Below are positions 24,916-57,649 of a DNA stretch of 64,000 bases, one piece after another; position 1 is the stretch's first letter, and each line of letters starts with the position of its first letter. Under the pieces are notes generated by a model, which searched no databases, was not told the origin of the DNA, and saw only the letters and a program-made list of their open reading frames with translations. Origin of the DNA: Mobula hypostoma (Eukaryota); assembly GCF_963921235.1 (NCBI RefSeq), contig NC_086108.1, forward strand, positions 2,418,001 to 2,482,000, read 5' to 3'. A program made the position numbers and the translations under genes.

Positions 24916-25293
24916 GTGTTTAGTTGTAGAATTTCAGTTTTAATCTGCAGTTTTATTTAACAGCATATTATACGCTGATTTCTTTTGACGTTTAAAAGAA
25001 TTAAGCAAAATCGTAATGTCTAACCTTGTATCAAGTACCACATTTCTTCTTGCTGTGTTCCATTCAAACTGAGTCTGTTTATTGTTTGCATTTTGAATCA
25101 TGCGGTTACTAAAGAGTCTGAATAACATAAAGTGGAACTATTTATATGTAAGGGAAACAATTAAGTCTTCGTTAATTTTCCCCTCAGGAACTGTTCTTCA
25201 GGCAGTAAATGGTTGTCAGTAGACAGCTGAAGTTCCTTGCCTAGTGGAAGAAGACTATCTTAAAGAGATTCTTGCCATGTGTGTTCCAAGAAG

Positions 25294-25375
25294 ATGGGTG
25301 TTAATGCTTCTACCTACCCGTATCCGTCATGTCAGACAGCTGGGGTGAAAACACAGTCTTCAAATGCAATCGGTG
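25294..25375 (+). CDS. BTBD7: BTBD7-like first coding exon (MGVNASTYPYPSCQTAGVKTQSSNAIG + 1 nt); exon probably starts at acceptor 25188
   Basis: ATG at 25294 and GTAAG donor at 25376 give 82 coding nt (phase 1), joining in frame (G+AA=Glu) to the exon at 38034. The N-terminus resembles vertebrate BTBD7 MGANASNYP. Upstream acceptor ttttcccctcAG ends at 25187. Confidence 0.85.
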
Positions 25376-25467
25376 GTAAGAATTTTTTTCTGTATCGTAA
25401 ACATGAGAAAGTCCAAAGCAACATGCACAAAGTGCTGGAGGAACTCAGATGCTGCCTGACCTGCTAT

Positions 25468-25997
25468 CGTCGTCGTTAGGTCACATCTGGAATTTCCAGT
25501 TGGCAGACGATTTCCCTCCACTCTGCTCTGACATTTTGGGAAATCACGTACGTGGCAGGTTACAGCAGTGGTTTGCCTTTGCTTTCTGCCGGGTGAGTTT
25601 AGTGAGATCACCACCTCTTGCAGTGGATGACGAGGATGTCTCAGTGCCTTGTCGTGCTCTTAGTGCTCCACAACACCTGCTGGCCTGCCTTCTTGACCAT
25701 TGGACCATTAATCGGTCTCCTCCGCGCAATCCGCCATGGCCAGACTTCACACGCTGGGACAGGCAGATCCCCTACCTCACTGAGGGTCAAAGACCTGTCG
25801 GCTACCCTCACCTGGTTTGGCCCGTCTGCCGAGACGGTTTACCGGGGTGTGGCCGCTGCGCGTGTTACACCTACTTGGAGCCTCAGGTGAGAGCTGAGCA
25901 CCAGGTGGGGACCAATGGTGGACGAGCTGCCCTGAAAAAGGGTACGCAGGCCCCCCCACCAGAGGTGCTGCCCCTCCCTAGACACGCCATACACCCC
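25468..25997 (-). mobile_element. Non-autonomous bipartite RTE-type retroelement with HDV-like ribozyme fold at its 5' end
   Basis: Direct repeat CCTGACCTGCTAT at 25455-25467 and 25996-26008; (ACG)n tail; RTE-like 5' UTR; no RT ORF; inserted into a Penelope pLTR. Confidence 0.75.
25805..25997 (-). ncRNA. Predicted HDV-like self-cleaving ribozyme
   Basis: Manual fold: P1 GGGGTGT/ACACCCC, P2 CTCTCACCTG/CAGGTGAGGG, P3 GGC/GCC with L3 starting TCC, P1.1 CC/GG, P4 CCGTCT/AGACGG, J4/2 GCCAAA. All elements are in canonical order; J1/2 and L3 are enlarged. Confidence 0.6.
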
Positions 25998-26008
25998 TGA
26001 CCTGCTAT

Positions 26009-34628: not shown

Positions 34629-34734
34629 GTGCTCGCTTTGGCGGCACATATACTAAAATTGGAATGATGCAGAGAATATTAGCACGGCCCCTGCGCGAGG
34701 ATGACACATAAATTTGTGAAGTGTTGGATATTTT
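34629..34734 (+). pseudogene. RNU6: Full-length U6 snRNA retro-pseudogene
   Basis: 106 nt colinear with vertebrate U6 (GTGCTCGCTT...TATTTT), about 13 substitutions by manual comparison with the recalled sequence. Several are CpG transitions, and the ACAGAGA box reads GCAGAGA. No recognisable PSE/TATA upstream. Confidence 0.93.
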
Positions 34735-35004
34735 GGGGCGGCACAATTGTGTATTAATGAGCACACCGCATTACAGTACGGGCGATCTAGGTTCAATTCC
34801 CGAGTCTACATTCTCCCTCGTAGCCACGTGGGTTTCCTGCAGGTGCTCTGCTTTCCTCCCACAGTTCGAAGACATACCGGTTGGTAGGTTAATTTGTCAT
34901 TTTAAATAGTTTTATGATTAGTCTCGGATTAATTGGGTGGTTGCTGGGCAGCACGGCTCGAAGGGACGAAAGGGCCTGTTCCACACTGTATCTCAATAAA
35001 TAAA
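34735..35004 (+). mobile_element. tRNA-derived SINE (V-SINE/HE1-like) fused to U6
   Basis: tRNA-like head with B-box (GGTTCAATTCC), V-domain-like core GTGGGTTTCC...TTTCCTCCCACA, CR1-like tail ending TCTCAATAAATAAA. Same family as 23340-23565 and 53863-54151. Confidence 0.85.
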
Positions 35005-35256
35005 CAAGTAGTTTCAGGGGATTCTCTTGTAATCTTGTTCAGCCCTACAATCTCTCTGGATTCTGTTCTTTTTATCCTCAGTTTCCCAATTTTGGTCACC
35101 CTACTATTGAGTGGATAACCAACTGAGATATCTTTCCATACCTTAAACTAGCTCTTGTTAAACTAGCCTTTTTTTCATTTGACTGAATAGTAAAAGTTAC
35201 CTTCTAATGCTCTTTGTGAATTTCCATGATATCCACATGTGTCATATACACTGTTG

Positions 35257-35625
35257 GTTCATTCTGTGCTGTGTTGTATGATGTGTGTGAGCACGGTCTT
35301 TTCCTGACCATGATTGTTCTTGGCAAATTTTTCTACAGAAGTAGTTTGCCATTGCTTTTTTCTGGGCAGTGCCTTTACAAGACGGGTGACCCCAGCCATT
35401 ACCAATACTCTTCAGAGATTGTCTGCCTGGTGTCAGTGGTCACATAACCAGGACTTGTGATACGTACAAACATCCACCACATGCTCCCATGGCTTCATGT
35501 GATCCTGATCATGGCCGTGGGGCTAAGCAGGTGCGACACCTTGCCCAGGGGTGACCCGCAGGCTAGCAGATGGAAGGAGTACCTTACTCCTCATTTGGTA
35601 GTGACATACCTCCACTCTGCCACCC
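35257..35625 (-). mobile_element. Short non-coding retroelement family, probably RTE-derived; copies at about 22721-23005, 47369-47750, 54155-54462
   Basis: Four colinear copies share GGTCACCC.TGG.CAAGGTGT.GCACCTGCTTAGC and AAGGCAATGGCAAACCACTTCTGTAGAAA, an RTE-tail-like motif. Confidence 0.7.
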
Positions 35626-38033
35626 AAGAAGTTCAATGACACAATTTCCATATACATCAAACAACAAATTTCCTAACATATGTCAGTGATAATAAACCTG
35701 ATTCTCTTCCCCTTAATTCTCCATCTTCCAGCCATGTTCCCAAGTAGGCAACGCAAGGTTAGGAATTGTCCCGGCACTCACATTCGGAATGTTGCAAGCT
35801 CATCAGAGGCAATTTGTAGCCAATGAATTACTTGAACTGTGTAATTATTGTAATACATACTTTTCATGTTGCTATTGTTCTGTCTTGCCAGAATTTTGTT
35901 CCATACCTGTCATTGTGTTAAGTGGATCTCGTTTATTCTGCTCCTCTGTTTCTCTTGTCAGCAGGTTTGCAAAAGAAGCCACTTTGCTGAATATCACAGG
36001 ATCCTCTTTCAAAACAATGCAGTTTTGCCAGAATTCAGTTCGATTCAAATTTAATTGTCATTCAGCCATACACGAATACTCATGAATACAGCCAAATGAG
36101 ACAGCATTACTCCGAGGTCAGGGTGCAAAACACAGTACCAACAGTCACACACGAGATAGCAAGCGCAAATGGTATCACAATTACGCAATAAAAGAGTCAA
36201 AGACTCACACCATCAATCCACAGTCGACCACAATAGAGTCAGTCTCCCACTGAGTGAACAGTGGGTGGGGGAGTCTGCGTTTAATTAGTATGAACTTGTC
36301 TTTTGGAACATAGAACAGTTTAGCACAGGAACAGACCCTTCAGCCCACAATGTTTTGCTGAATAAGCTTAAAAAGTAAATTAAAAAAACCAAAAACTAAC
36401 CCCTCCTATCTACACAATGTCCATATCCCTCCATCTTCCTTGTATTCTTGTGCCTATCTAAATGGCTCTTAAAAACCTCGAATATACGTCTTTGCCTCTA
36501 CCATCATACCAGGCAGCACATTCTAGGCATCCACCACTCTCTGAGGGGGAGAAAAAATTACCCCTCACTTCCCCTTTCAAACCTATCCCTCTCACCTTCA
36601 ATGTATTAGACATTATCTTGGTCAGCTGATGGCCCTTCCCATCTCTCACATCAGAAGGCTTGTGGATCCCAGACCTAGAGGTCGAAGCTACGAACTTAAG
36701 GCAATTAGAGTTGAGTAGGCCACTTGGCCCCTCAGTTCTACCCCATCATTCAGCCGGATCCTGTTTGAAATGCACCCCCCTCACCCCACCGTTCCCAAAA
36801 GCACACTATCCTGCAACCTTTCAAAAATACATCTATTTCCTGATCATCTATATTTTAGTGATTTGATCTCCATGGTGCTGCAGGTAGTGAATTCCAGAGG
36901 TTCTGCAAGAATAGGTTGATGTTCTATAGGATGAAGGAAGTGCTGTACTGTTGGAGATGTAGAGTTTTGGATTAAATACTAATTTGAGGCCCTGTTCATC
37001 CAATCAGATGGATATTTCTTTTTTTTTAAATCTGCCTTTTTTTTTGAAGGTATAAGTAAATTTTTTGTCACGGTATTCAGTATGATAATCTTCAGTTCAT
37101 AATGTGTTTCTAAAAAGGTGGTGTTCATCATTAAGGATCCCCATCACCCAGGACATGTCCTCTTCTTGTTGTTGTCATCAAGGAAGAGGTACAGGAACCT
37201 GAAGATACACTCAACAGTTCAGGGACAGCTTCTTCCCCTCTGTCATCCAATCTCAGAATGAACACTGCCTCATTTTTTAATTTCTATCTTTGCAACACAT
37301 ACATTCACACACACTGTGTATTTGCTGTAGTTCACAAATTATTTTTCTATGATTATGTATTGCATTGTACTGCTGCCACAAAGACAACACATTTCAGGAC
37401 GTATGCCAGTGATATTAAACCTAATTTTGATTTTTTTTTTAAGTCTTTCATTCCCCAGTGCTGACGCCTAGAATTCTACAGTATGGGAGTGGGCCATTTG
37501 GCCCAACTAAGCCATGCATCTATCACTCTGTGTATAAAAAGAGAACACAAAACCATTCCTCTGACATTTCTTTCCCCCAGCAATACTTTTCTCCCAACTC
37601 CTTGAAAAATTTTGTATCCTTGTTTTAGCCATTTCTACTCTGGCGGGGGGGTGGGGGGTGAAGTCACTGGCTATCCACTCAATCTCTGCCTCTTATCGTC
37701 TTGTACACCGCTATCAAGTCACCTCTCATCCTTCTTCAATCCAAAGAGAAACACCCTAGCTGGCTCAACCTATCCTCATAAGCCATGCTCCCTAGTTCCC
37801 ACATTATCTGTCTATTAGTGTTGTAATTATACCTGCCTCGACCACGTCCTCTGGCAGTTTGCTTCATGTACTTACCATCCTCTCACCACCCCCCCCCGCC
37901 TGTACTGTGAAGTGTTGTGCTAACCACTACGCTACCGTGTTGCCCCGCAAAGTTATTTTAACTCTGTTGTCACAAAGTTTGCTTCACTCTGACAAGAAAT
38001 TATGTAACCTGCGATTTATTTGTCTTTGGACAG

Positions 38034-39098
38034 AATCCCCTTCGCATCCTCAGTTCGGATGTCAGCTGGAAGGGAAGCTCTGCGTCTCTGGGCTGGGCCA
38101 GGACAAGCGTGAGAAGAAGAAGAGCTCCAACCTTGCCTTGCTGAAGAAGAAGCTGTTCAGGCGGCGCAAGTCGGCCAAATCGGCTGACCATGCCAAGCAC
38201 ATGCGGGAGCTCCTCTGCAGCTGGGATGTGCGAGACGTGGGCCTGCTGGTGAAGCAATATGAAGCGGCTCTGGCCGTGAAGGAGCTGGCAATTCAAGCAT
38301 GTGTGGCCAGGCCAGAGGCCAGCCGCTTAAATGAGGATTTGGCCAAGTTGTACCAGTTCAAGTACTGTACGGATGTGGACCTGATATTCCAGGGTACATG
38401 CTTTCCTGTCCATCGCGCCATCCTGGCAGCGCGGTGCCCTTTCTTCAAAACCCTCCTCCTGTCTAACCTGGACCGTGCGGAGTTGGTTATGGACATCAGC
38501 ACTGTTGGCATAGACATACCGATATTGTCTTCGCTATTGCACTACTTGTACAGTGGAGAGTTTGGCGTGCGGGATTCCCAGATCAAAAATGTTGACATCC
38601 TAGTGCGTCTCAGTGAGGAGTTTGGCATGCCCAATGCCCTTCACTTTGACATCTACAGCCTCCTGGAGAGTTGCTGCTATTACGACGCGGTCCTCAGCTT
38701 CACCTCCAGCCCCGAGGCCTCCGACGGCTTCGAAGGGTGCCGCCTGGAAGGTGACTTCCGCTGCCACAAGGCCATCCTCTGCGCCCGCTCGCCGTTCTTC
38801 CGCAACCTCCTCCAGAAGCGGATCCGCAGCGGGGAGGAAACCACAGACCGGACCTTGCAGACCCCAGCCAGGATTGTTCTGAACGAGGCAATCATTCCAA
38901 AGAAGTATGCAAAGGTTATTTTGCATTGCATGTACACAGACCTGGTGGACCTGGATTTGGTCCTACCATTCAGCCCGTCTACAGGGAGTTTGAGGGAAGT
39001 GCAGGATGAATCAGGGAAGGACAGCGAAACCCGGTTGGAAAACGCAATGGAACTGTTCCATATCGCACTCTTCATTGAATTCGACATGTTGGCCCAAG
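38034..39098 (+). CDS. BTBD7: BTBD7-like large exon encoding two BTB/POZ domains and a basic NLS-like segment
   Basis: Lies inside ORF 37859..39199. Motifs LKKKLFRRRKSAKSADHAKHMRELL, YKYCTDVDLIFQGTCFPVHRAILAARCPFF-like, HKAILCARSPFFRNLLQKRIR and MELFHIALFIEFDMLAQG match BTBD7 as I recall it. Acceptor cAG at 38031-38033, donor GTAAG at 39099; 1065 nt, phase 1/1. Confidence 0.95.
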
Positions 39099-39107
39099 GT
39101 AAGGAAA

Positions 39108-40050
39108 ACATAGAACATAGAACAGTACAGGACAGGAACAGGCTCTTCGGTGCCAAACCAGCTAAAAAGTCAGTCAAACCCCTCTCCCCAAAATCTTAAC
39201 CCTCCTACCTGCACCATGTCCATATGCCTCTGTCTTCCTGACATCCATGTGCCTTTCCAAAGGTCTGTTCAAAGCCTCTAAAATATTTGCCTCTACCACC
39301 ATACTGGGCAGCGTATCCATCACTCTGAATAAAAAAAACTTACCCCCTCACATCCCCCTTAAGCCTACCCCCTCTCACCTTCAATGCATGCCCTCTGATA
39401 TTAGACATTTCAACCCTGGGAAGCAGATACTCTCTGTCCACTCTGTCTATGCCTCCCATAATCTTGTAAACCTCTATCAGATCTCCCCTCAGCATCCACT
39501 GCTCTGGAGAAAACAGCCCAAGTTTATCCAGCCTCTTGTGATAGGATATGCCCTCTAAACCAGGCAACATCCTCATAAACCTCTATTGCACAGTCTCCGA
39601 AGCCTTAACGTCCTTCCTCTAGTGGGGCAACCAGAACTGTATACTCCAGAAGTGGCCTAATCGGAGATTTGTAAAGTTGCAACATAACCTCTTGACTTTT
39701 GAAATTAATGCCTCAACTAGTAAAAGCAAGCATCCCATAAATGGCCTTAACCACCCTAGCGACCTGTGAAGCCACTTTCAAAGGGCTATAAACTTGGATC
39801 CCAAGATCTCCCTGCACAGCAACACTGTTGAGGATCTTGCCCTTAACGGTGTACTGTCTCCTTGCATTTGCCCTCCCAAGATGCAACACCTCACATTTAT
39901 CTAGGTTAAATGCCATCTACCATTTCTCAGACCATATCTACATTTGATCTATTCTTTGCCAGTCTTCCACACTATCCACAACTGCACCAATCTTGGTATC
40001 ATCTGCAAATTTACTAACCCACCCATCTACATTTTCGTCTAGGTCATACA
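39108..40050 (-). mobile_element. CR1 LINE 3' fragment
   Basis: MAFNLDKCEVLHLGR, LRGDLIEVYKIM, RGHALKV; (TTCTATG)-type tail adjacent to the exon donor. Confidence 0.88.
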
Positions 40051-54151: not shown

Positions 54152-55840
54152 TGTAGTACCTGCTTAGCACCCTCCCCACCCCCACCCCCATCCTGATCAG
54201 GGTCACGTGAAGCCACGGGAGCAGGTGATGGATGGTCCTATGGGCAGCTGGTGCATATCACAAGTCCTGGTTATGTGGCCACTGACATCAGGCAATTTCT
54301 GAAGAGTATTGATTGTGGGTGGGGAGGTCACCAGTCTTGTAAACCCACTGCCCAGAAGGCGGCAATGGCAAACCACTTCTGTAGAAAGATTTGCCAGGAA
54401 CAATCATTGTCATGGAAAGACCAAGATCGTCCACATCATATGACATGGCACATGATGATAATGTTACTGTCACCATTATAATAGAGGGGAATTGGTTTTC
54501 TAATTTCGAATTTGGTTTCTAATTTCATACAACATTGTTTCAGAGGTACTTGTGCAGAAACACATCATATGGCATAAAAACAATTCATTTAAAATTCTAC
54601 TTTGTTTCTGTTATTCCCACTCCACCGACTGAATAAGACACAAATTCAAGCCTTTTTTAAAATTGACAGTGAACAAAATTTTTGGAGTGGACTTAAAGGT
54701 TGAAGCAGTGAAGATAGGAAAGTCAGACTAAGAAGAAAGTTGTGGCTGGCCTTAGATGATTTAAAGTATATTGATTGGTCTTCCTGAAGCACAAGTATGA
54801 TGTGGCACCTCCTTGGCATACATATCTGCTGTAGATGTGGTGGGGCAATTGGAGGCAGGATCCGGATTAGTTAGTGACCGTAGTGGAGCACAATCCCAAA
54901 CTGTTGCACTATTTTCCCAAACAAAAATCAGAAGTAACAGTAATTATAAACATGAGAAAATCTGCAGATGCTGGAAATCCAAAGCAATGCACACAAATTG
55001 CTAGTAAATAGTAACGATGGAATTAGTGGACCAGACTTAGTAAGCCGAATTGCTGAATTCTGCTTTATGCCTTGTGATCAAAAATAAGAGAATGGTGCTT
55101 GAGTGAAATACCCTAAGAGTTGCAATGGGTTGGGTTTGGACAGCTTGTGTACTGCAGACCTTTTAACAATTTTTTAAATTTGTGTTCTTTTTATTTACAC
55201 GTATGACTGCAAATCTTTTAACAAGCTTTTATTTACATGTATCAGGAATTTGCTGTGGTGCGTTGGTCAGGGTGCAACATGCAACACAAAAATCAACATT
55301 CAGAGTATAAAGAATTATATAAAAAAATAGAGTAAGAAGTTAAAGGATAGATGTGGAATACCATGTACACAAATACCAGCATGTATTTACAATGTGACCA
55401 GCCTTATAGAAGGAGTTTAAAATGTTTACACTGCAGTGATGGTGCTAATACATAAGGGGGGGGGGGGTGGGAAGGTCACTAACTAGAATGTTTCATCAAG
55501 TTAACTGCCTAGCGGAAAAAAATTTGAAGGTGACGTGATTTTTGTTTTAATAGCCCTAGAGCACTTTTAGAAGCAAGATTTTGGAAAAGACAGTTTGCAG
55601 GGTGGGTGGTGACCACAATGATTTTTCCTGCCCGCTTCTTTGTCCTGAACACGTATAACTGAGTTTGAAAATGACATACCTGGAGAAAGCCATTGCCAAG
55701 ATCATAGAGTTTTGGGAGTCAAATGGGGGGTGGGGGAGAAATAGCAGTGAAATAAAAACAAATGGTTTGAGATTGATTTATAAAGGAGATGGTGTTTTTT
55801 GCTGCTGTTGTATCTAATTCACATATAATTTTCTATACAG

Positions 55841-56049
55841 GCTGTGAAGATCTGATTGTTGAGAGCGTTACGCTGGACTCACTAGTGACTATCCTGAAGT
55901 GGAGTTCGCAACCTTATGGATCCAAGTGGGTCCATCGGCAGATGCTGCATTTCCTCTGTGAGGAGTTCAGTAATATCATCGCTTCAGACAGTCTCTTGGA
56001 GCTCAGTAAGGAGCACCTGATGGCAGCCATCCAGTCAGACTACCTGCAG
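55841..56049 (+). CDS. BTBD7: BTBD7-like exon (start of BACK-like region)
   Basis: Encodes (G)CEDLIVESVTLDSLVTILKWSSQPYGSKWVHRQMLHFLCEEF...AIQSDYLQ, continuing MLAQG in frame. Acceptor ttttctatacAG at 55840, donor GT at 56050. Confidence 0.93.
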
Positions 56050-57649
56050 GTACTGGACTTCTGTCATCAGTTAATGAATTCCAGCTTGTGTATTTGAGGG
56101 ATTTGTTAACGAAAGATAACAAGATTTGAATTAGGTTTTGTATCACTAGCGTATGGATGTGGAGTTGATGTTTCTTATGGTGGGGGAGACTAGGACCAGA
56201 GGGCACAGCCTCATAATAGAGGGGTGTCCTTTTAGAATGGAGCTGAGGAGGAATTTCTTTATCCAGATTGTGGCAAATCTATAGAGGCCAAGTAATGTTG
56301 GTATATTTAAGGTGGAGGTTGATAGATTAATCAGGGCGTGAAAGGTTATGGGTGGGGTGGGGGGGAAGGCAGGGGAATGGGGTGAGAGAGAAATGGATCA
56401 GCCCATGATCAAATAACGAGTAGACTTGATGGGCTGAATGTGCTAATTTTGCTCTAATGTCTTGTATGTTATGAAATTTGTTGTTTTGCAGCAGCATTGT
56501 TTATGTAAATTATTATAAGAAATATAGATGTACTGTCCTTGCTGAGGTGTTGTCACATCAATTAGACAGTCAGCCAAACTCCATTCAAAAATGACATGAG
56601 AGTCAGCGTATGGAGTCCTAGCTCCTTGGGTTTATTGCAGACTCAATGATATGACATAGTGGATAAGGAGCAAAATGGAAAAACAACAAAATACAGTGAA
56701 ATTACCATGTTGTTTTATTCACACAAAATATAAGATTCTGACAATACTACAGGTAAACAGTTAGCATCTAGCTTAGTGTTGATTAAACTTGAAAATAACA
56801 TTCAATTTCAGCAAACTCTTATTGAAACCTTCAGATTAACTTCTAAACAATATAGCATCAACTTACAAGCAGTGTTTGTGCTGGGGAACAGCAGGATGGC
56901 TTTGGATAGAAACTTGCACTTCTAACATAAACCTCTGGACTTCTATCAACCACTGTGCTTTCCTACTTAACACTTCCTGTCTGCACAGAAAGTGATCTAA
57001 TACACATCAGAAACTACTCATTAAAATAAAAGCTGCATGTGATTAGTCACATACAAAGACATAAATGAATTGCCCAAAGGGCAGAACAATATATAATTGA
57101 AATATTGCAAAAAGAGCACAAAAAATTGAGGTAGTGTTCATTGTCCATTCAGAGATCTGATGGAGGAGGGGAAGAAGATGTTTCTTAACGACCTAACCTG
57201 GTTGCAACATTTTGATGCAGCTGTAAAGAAGGCAAGGCAGCAACTATATTTCATTAGGAGTTTGAGTAGATTTGGTTTGTCACCTAAAACATTCAAACTT
57301 TTATTAATGTACCATGGAGAGCACACTAACTGGCTGCATCACATCTGGTATGGAGAGGGACTACTGCACAGGATTGAAGTAAGTTGCAAAAGGTTGTAAA
57401 ATTAGTCAGCTCCATCTTGGGTACTAGCCTCTGCAGTATCCAGAACAGCTCAGGGAGCGGTGCCTCAGGAAGGCGGTATCCATCATTAAGGACTCCCTCC
57501 ACACAGGACATGCCCTCTTCTCATTGTTACCGATGGGAGGGAGGTACAGGGACCTGAAGACACACTCTCAATGATTCAGGAACAGCTTCTTCCCCTCTAC
57601 CATCCAATTTCTAAATGGACATTGAACCCATAAACACTACCTTACTACT

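Follow-up and report, generated by a model that had tools for sequence, protein, structure and literature searches.

The closest described counterparts of the element analysed here are the R2 SIDEs and R2/R1 hybrid SIDEs of Drosophila, which are ORF-less and which, in the case of the hybrids, join the ribozyme of one LINE to the 3′ end of another (PMC3414825). The NARTc, RIME and SIDER elements of trypanosomatids are likewise non-autonomous and possess an active HDV-like ribozyme at the 5′ end, with some copies being inactive (PMC4035085). Bov-A, RTESINE1/2 and WALLSI3 are bipartite RTE derivatives composed of a 5′ UTR and a 3′ end, the ORF having been deleted; bipartite elements of this type have been associated with LINE clades that carry a ribozyme at the 5′ end, and chimeras have been described among them (PMC5786205; PMC7245038). 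In RTE elements themselves, HDV-like ribozymes were reported within the 5′ UTRs and proposed to free the elements from co-transcripts (Ruminski et al., 2011, as cited in PMC5786205 and PMC6765202), and a review states that RTE elements and some SINEs use HDV-like ribozymes (PMC6765202). Ribozyme-headed, ORF-less and even hybrid elements are thus already in print (R2 SIDEs, R2/R1 SIDEs, NARTc), and since the general design is a published one, the surprise offered by a further example is limited.

The locus under study is a 530-nt, ORF-less retroposon copy at 25468–25997 on the minus strand of a 64-kb window, by which we mean the whole stretch of DNA analysed. A preliminary description had called it an ORF-less RTE-type element. 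The absence of an ORF and the mobilisation by an RTE-type LINE both stand; the element is, however, a chimera, and its ribozyme head was not derived from the LINE that supplied the 3′ end.

A chimeric retroposon and its partner LINE

The element is one decayed insertion of a non-autonomous retroposon family, designated family A. It is a three-part chimera of a 380-nt head, an 89-nt piece of 5′ UTR and a 62-nt 3′ end. The parts and their surroundings are as follows.

25619–25997, minus strand: head module, element nt 1–380, common to families B and C and to five metagenome contigs
25530–25618, minus strand: 89-nt piece of the partner LINE 5′ UTR (L092:1736–1824), by sequence match
25468–25529, minus strand: partner LINE 3′ end with the last ORF codons, the stop codon (25478–25476) and a short (CGA)n tail, by sequence match
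25998–26008, minus strand: 5′ target-site duplication, 11 nt long, or 13 nt with the two leading G of P1 included as microhomology, by flank match
25457–25467, minus strand: 3′ target-site duplication (reaching 25455 in the 13-nt version), by flank match
25188–25375, plus strand: first coding exon of a BTB/BACK-domain host gene (ATG 25294, GT donor 25376), by gene match

Element nt 381–469 matched the 5′ UTR of the LINE copy L092 at 95.5% for the family consensus and 92.1% for the window copy, and nt 469–529, the 62-nt 3′ end, matched the ORF end and tail of L091 and L092 at 92–95%. Both pieces are common to autonomous-type LINE copies, as in the bipartite RTE derivatives, and the microsatellite (CGA)n tail, the target-site duplications and the existence of 5′-truncated copies are further traits of that group. 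Element nt 1–380 had no match in L092, indicating that the ribozyme head did not come from the LINE supplying the 3′ end; the element is accordingly tripartite and not assembled from the 5′ and 3′ parts of a single LINE. The 3′ motif gave 204 exact matches in the genome, and among the 30 loci examined 17 were 5′-truncated LINE copies that have only the last 62 nt in common with the element, 11 bore the head, one (L082) derives directly from the LINE by internal deletion and one was too short to assign.

L092 is a near-complete, broken LINE in which an APE-like region lies right after a short 5′ UTR and the RT region farther on, with no ORF1 before them; its relatives are single APE-RT proteins of 978–1008 aa. 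A single ORF with APE and RT domains and without ORF1 is the RTE layout, and this architecture fits an RTE-type partner, the label being taken from the architecture and from the name of a protein cluster. The nearest named Atlas cluster to the partner LINE protein is 'craniofacial development protein 2-like', which we presume to be linked to RTE. The 5′ end of the partner LINE is also sharp, the same start base being found in 24 of 39 other matches. In L092 (1559–1830) and L082 the first 7–8 nt are complementary to a site ~150 nt downstream, and this site is followed by a hairpin and CUAAA, an arrangement resembling P1, P4 and J4/2 without the UCC loop; an HDV fold was sought in these two copies and was not confirmed. 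The junction of family A lies within this 5′ UTR hairpin. Elsewhere in the window, two copies of another short repeat (35150–35500, minus strand; 54200–54460, plus strand) carry the same GGCAAAC region as element nt 405–437, and their sequence makes another RTE-derived short element likely.

The head of family A is shared, at ~77%, with family B and with L054 (family C); the three families therefore have the same head and three different tails. Family B yielded 1942 exact matches of a 24-nt motif, among which 30 loci were read. Beyond this genome, a search with a 17-nt motif recovered the head in 5 of 40 metagenome loci, only chance matches being seen in the other 35 and in the 2 viral and 23 prokaryotic loci. 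Four of the five head-bearing loci extend for several hundred nt further through related sequence that is non-coding and probably belongs to a long LINE 5′ UTR; no ORF was reached, and no autonomous parent of the head was seen in this analysis. A homogeneous family of 453 candidates in the same genome matches metagenome locus L095 from about nt 223 onward and not in the ribozyme part. This family may carry a different 5′ head, a pattern suggesting that the ribozyme part itself has been exchanged.

When the whole element was used as the query against the 3.48-Gb genome, 3751 first-look candidates were obtained; the junction specific to family A gave 286 matches at ≤2 mismatches, which is a lower bound for the number of family A copies. 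The family was found in all four public sequencing runs (4/4). Thirty copies showed a mean identity to the consensus of 94.2%, with a divergence of 18.1% at CpG sites vs 3.4% elsewhere, and a fully intact core was kept by only five of the 30. On these divergence and CpG-decay figures, family A is neither ancient nor freshly active. The window copy had been thought CpG-rich and probably young; the former is correct (CpG o/e of 0.56 vs 0.32 for the window), whereas youth is contradicted by its 27 differences from the consensus (~5%, 11 of them CpG transitions) and by the 89–91% identity to it of other copies, namely the best 39 of the 3751 candidates.

The preliminary description had put the element forward as promoter-less and SINE-like. 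Neither A nor B boxes for pol III were found in the window copy, the family A consensus or the family B head, and no TATA motif was found for the element. ARAGORN in relaxed mode returned one match in one of two sequences, and Rfam gave no match for the element, which hence lacks the tRNA-, 5S- or 7SL-derived head of classical SINEs. An internal pol II promoter would not be expected to have a simple signature and would escape this box search.

The insertion lies 92 nt into the intron that follows the first coding exon of the host gene, which we take to be BTBD7 (exons also at 38000–39196 and 55777–56094, plus strand); it is antisense to the gene, and would thus not be cut out of its pre-mRNA. 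A contig from run X1 spans 25184–25375 with zero differences. A contig with the empty site was not encountered; two orthologous contigs stop at 25437. At the insertion site, the host repeat at 25448–25462 shows a 15-nt inversion relative to its common form (loose contig ends). The window also contains, at 34629–34735 (plus strand), a copy of U6 snRNA that scores 91.8 bits in Rfam but bears several changes and is probably a pseudogene.

The predicted HDV-like fold and the 5′ end of the copies

The segments that had been listed in HDV order on the minus strand were all confirmed by position, and the refined features are given below.

25991–25997, minus strand: P1 5′ strand, at the common start of full-length copies, with compensatory changes in L095 and L097
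25896–25987, minus strand: J1/2, a long irregular hairpin holding the CCCCACCUGG segment (25910–25901), by folds and compensatory changes
25893–25884, minus strand: P2 5′ strand, top pair at 25883, by nine-sequence alignment
25880–25882, minus strand: P3 5′ strand, by alignment
25879–25854, minus strand: L3, 26 nt, by alignment
25872–25879, minus strand: L3 core of 8 nt with U20, C21, C22 and G25 (25874) in canonical spacing, by alignment
25854–25871, minus strand: additional hairpin towards the 3′ end of L3, 4–6 bp, loop often CAUG, by alignment
25853–25851, minus strand: P3′, by alignment
25850–25844, minus strand: P1′, by alignment
25843–25842, minus strand: P1.1 GG, by alignment
25822–25841, minus strand: J1/4 and the P4 hairpin (P4 25837–25822), two P4 pairs differing both-sidedly between families
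25815–25821, minus strand: J4/2, including C25820 as candidate general acid, a C being present here in 9/9 aligned sequences
25805–25814, minus strand: P2 3′ strand (P2′), by alignment

A generic HDV descriptor, which was drawn up after the element was seen and allowed L3 to reach 40 nt, gave a single match when the two strands of the 64-kb window were scanned, located at 25997, and 0/5000 matches in dinucleotide shuffles of the region. The nested double-pseudoknot order of P1, P2, P3, P1.1 and P4 is present, and GCAAC follows P1.1 in family B and three metagenome sequences, as in genomic HDV. P1 comprises 7 bp and opens with G1-C, in keeping with HDV-like ribozymes, in which a P1 of 6–7 bp starts from G1 with a G-Y pair (PMC3774820; PMC6326823). 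The features U20, C21, C22 and G25 are also those given for L3 of HDV-like ribozymes (PMC6326823; bioRxiv 2022.09.22.508989); among the nine aligned sequences U20 and the CC of L3 are invariant (9/9) and G25 is kept in eight. The candidate catalytic C of J4/2 is likewise invariant (9/9) and is followed by N-A-A, except in L114 with a G for the first A. P1.1 is intact in 7/9 and broken in two decayed copies, and the top pair of P2 is U-A in 8/9, the window copy alone being broken (A-A) at 25883. Rfam gave no HDV match, either at the gathering threshold or with E values of up to 10 allowed; long inserts and pseudoknots can defeat such curated models. The nested folding energy was ordinary (z = −0.55), as is expected with a pseudoknot.

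Covariation was assessed between families because decay after insertion makes within-family covariation uninformative. The alignment held nine sequences, 58–96% alike (58–86% between families), in which 67 pairs were 89.7% paired. Both-sided changes were observed in 21 of the 67 pairs as compared with 8.6 ± 2.2 in shuffles, none of 500 reaching 21, in a control that ignores relatedness where few lineages underlie the covariation; the structure was derived in part, namely for J1/2, from the same alignment, and the search motifs fixed P2 5′–P3 5′–UCC in 5/9 rows and J4/2–P2′ in 2/9 (7/9 in all). The changes fell in P1, P4 and J1/2, with P2, P3 and P1.1 being conserved without both-sided change. 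Compensatory changes in P1 were seen at pair 2 of L095 (G-C to U-A) and pair 5 of L097; of the four P1 pairs scored as changed on both sides, the other two are artefacts of rows in which the 5′ end has been lost or has decayed. In L095 it is the first of two tandem GGGGUGU copies that changes together with P1′, and P1 is thereby linked to the precise 5′ terminus. The covariation that the preliminary description had proposed to look for in P1–P4 was hence encountered in P1 and P4, with P2 and P3 being conserved without it.

The first G of P1 had been described as abutting the target-site duplication. An 11-nt duplication with G25997 as the first base of the element bears this out, but the match extends 2 nt into P1, and the boundary cannot therefore be fixed from the window copy alone; other copies fix it at G1. 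Among 30 aligned family A copies chosen for full length, conservation sets in abruptly at G1, and 23 of 29 copies so chosen start at that base. In samples not selected for length, an exact G1 start was found in 5/11 head-bearing family A copies and in 15/28 family B/C loci (after two duplicate loci were dropped), the rest being shorter. The prediction that full-length copies share one starting G was thereby upheld, and 5′-extended copies, which would have counted against the proposal, were confined to the family B loci L049 and L051, which share 69 nt upstream of G1. The shared flank may stem from the copying of an uncut read-through template, accompanied by a template switch, or from duplication of the DNA itself ~1 Mb away. 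The L051 locus (L051/L052) is a composite of a 3′-truncated copy, 69 nt of the L049 flank and a full copy, and the terminal GGGTGT of the L049 flank resembles the 5′ strand of P1, so that it could interfere with cleavage. The P1 5′ heptamer itself occurs in tandem (minus strand 25982–25997; nt 1–7 and 10–16), and L029 and L060 start near the second copy, which could point to a second, minor register of cleavage or to simple truncation.

Duplications of 7–15 nt were detectable in 20 of 30 copies; seven end exactly at G1 and eight overlap its first 1–2 G, an overlap above chance (p = 0.006, with an assumed G frequency of 0.21 and a search that favours longer matches). Such an overlap is consistent with microhomology-based priming, which has been suggested for R2 elements that are cleaved at their own terminus (PMC3774820). 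Taken as a prediction, a real ribozyme head on a chimeric, RTE-dependent element is well supported. The reading that we favour, with a probability of roughly 0.75, is that this head would self-cleave at G1 in source transcripts and that the partner LINE protein would copy the resulting RNA via the shared 3′ end.

Inserts in the fold and competing explanations

L3 measures 26–28 nt in 9/9 aligned sequences, as opposed to 7–8 nt in characterised ribozymes (bioRxiv 2022.09.22.508989), its length being due to a hairpin inserted beside a canonical 8-nt loop. The hairpin is present in all nine sequences with one-sided changes only, and one of its pairs is broken in the window copy by a private change at 25870. 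In L035, L095, L097, L111 and L126 the hairpin loop and closing pair form a 6-nt palindrome (GCAUGC or ACAUGU), by its sequence a possible kissing site that family A lacks. A hairpin in L3 was not described in the available parts of the literature searched (including PMC4870747, PMC13708176 and PMC6326823), a search that does not establish its absence from print, and it is the sole feature for which no precedent was found. The element is thus HDV-like by its predicted working, yet off the standard form in L3.

The CCCCACCUGG segment within J1/2 is complementary to P2′ at 10/10 positions in families A and B and partially so in the metagenome sequences. This complementarity had been taken to suggest a conformational switch, in which the J1/2 segment would compete for P2′ and toggle cleavage; in the unconstrained fold of the window copy the alternative P2 does take over, with a probability of 0.82. 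The corresponding value is 0.00 in both family consensuses, however, where the segment pairs upstream with a probability of 1.00, and when the P1 strands are reserved the alternative is worse by 3.8–16.7 kcal/mol in 11/11 sequences. Moreover, the strands of the J1/2 hairpin change together, most clearly in L111, which has altered both strands of the upstream pairing. An earlier model of J1/2, with two short hairpins and an outer extension of P2, was rejected, as it gave both-sided changes in 11/50 pairs vs 21/67 for the long hairpin. Three changes private to the window copy, at 25986, 25883 and 25870, probably favour the alternative P2, which is best read as predicted misfolding of a mutated copy. 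The complementarity is thus upheld, and a regulated switch appears very improbable.

More serious, though in our judgement still unlikely, is the explanation that the fold is real but that an internal pol II promoter at G1 sets the 5′ end, the fold serving as a protective cap or as a translation-start element taken over from the parent LINE, or being a relic disabled by the insert in L3. In its favour, L3 has three times the canonical length, the partner LINE has a comparably sharp 5′ end (24/39) without a recognisable UCC loop, the 5′-extended copy at L049/L051 exists, and in L1Tc/NARTc the same 77 nt are reported as both promoter and ribozyme (PMC3383444). What this explanation accounts for less well is that U20, G25, the catalytic C and the precise register of P1 have been retained across families only 58–86% alike, a pattern that fits selection for cleavage better than selection for a cap; nor was a TATA motif or pol III box found. 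That the HDV-like order is simply a chance arrangement in a G+C-rich repeat we consider barely credible: it would agree with the ordinary z value and the lack of an Rfam hit, but it leaves the 0/5000 shuffles, the compensatory changes in P1, P4 and J1/2 and the coincidence of the predicted cut site with the copy ends without explanation.

Proposed mechanism and comparison with known systems

Under self-cleavage at G1, RNA of a source copy, begun at an upstream or internal start, would form an HDV-like double pseudoknot from the 193 nt at the start of the element. In this fold C25820 would act as the general acid, and a cut just 5′ of G1 would produce templates with uniform 5′ ends, as the fold, the conservation and the copy ends suggest. 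The J1/2 insert would fold upon itself and the L3 insert would form a side hairpin behind the U20-C21-C22-x-x-G25 core, so that the active site could still form (the fold is predicted; covariation was shown for J1/2). The APE-RT protein of the partner LINE would then recognise the 62-nt 3′ end and carry out target-primed reverse transcription, the established LINE mechanism, giving rise to the 7–15-nt duplications. With regard to origin, the head of another RTE-type lineage may have taken the place of the initial ~175 nt in a copy of the partner LINE with an internal deletion, such as L082, an order of events that we infer. The window copy, as a decayed insertion, may cleave poorly.

A broader proposal, to which we would give somewhat less than an even chance, is that the head represents an as yet undescribed structural subclass of HDV-like ribozymes that is active with a hairpin grafted into L3, is missed by Rfam and by short-L3 descriptors, and serves as an exchangeable self-release module, which short RTE-dependent elements of animal genomes have transferred to at least three LINE tails, with thousands of copies in the present genome alone. 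Should cleavage be confirmed, the HDV-like family would tolerate an insert of 18–20 nt beside the active site, present searches would undercount HDV-like ribozymes, and L3 would be a second site for grafting domains. There would also be a dispersed, high-copy animal SINE-like element headed by a ribozyme where classical SINEs have a pol III head, and this head would have been shown to move between LINE partners. Host pre-mRNAs could be cut by the thousands of decayed intronic copies wherever these lie in the sense direction; the window copy is antisense.

Like the R2/R1 hybrid SIDEs, the element is ORF-less and has a ribozyme head and a mobilising LINE tail that differ in origin (PMC3414825). 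Self-cleavage has been shown for those hybrids, whereas here it is predicted from the sequence; the hybrids are specific to 28S rDNA and of low copy number, whereas the present family is dispersed in hundreds of copies. It differs from them further in its dependence on an RTE-type LINE, the additional piece of partner 5′ UTR and the L3 hairpin. Compared with Bov-A, RTESINE1/2 and WALLSI3, for which the accessible text of the reports gives no ribozyme structure (PMC5786205; PMC7245038), it adds a 380-nt head of a second lineage that is common to three families with three tails. NARTc, RIME and SIDER resemble it as non-autonomous LINE derivatives with a 5′ HDV-like ribozyme (predicted in our case), but they belong to the ingi/L1Tc clade and have a compact 77-nt ribozyme overlapping the promoter. 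With the RTE ribozymes of Ruminski et al., as cited in PMC5786205 and PMC6765202, it shares the placement of an HDV-like ribozyme, here a predicted one, at an RTE 5′ end.
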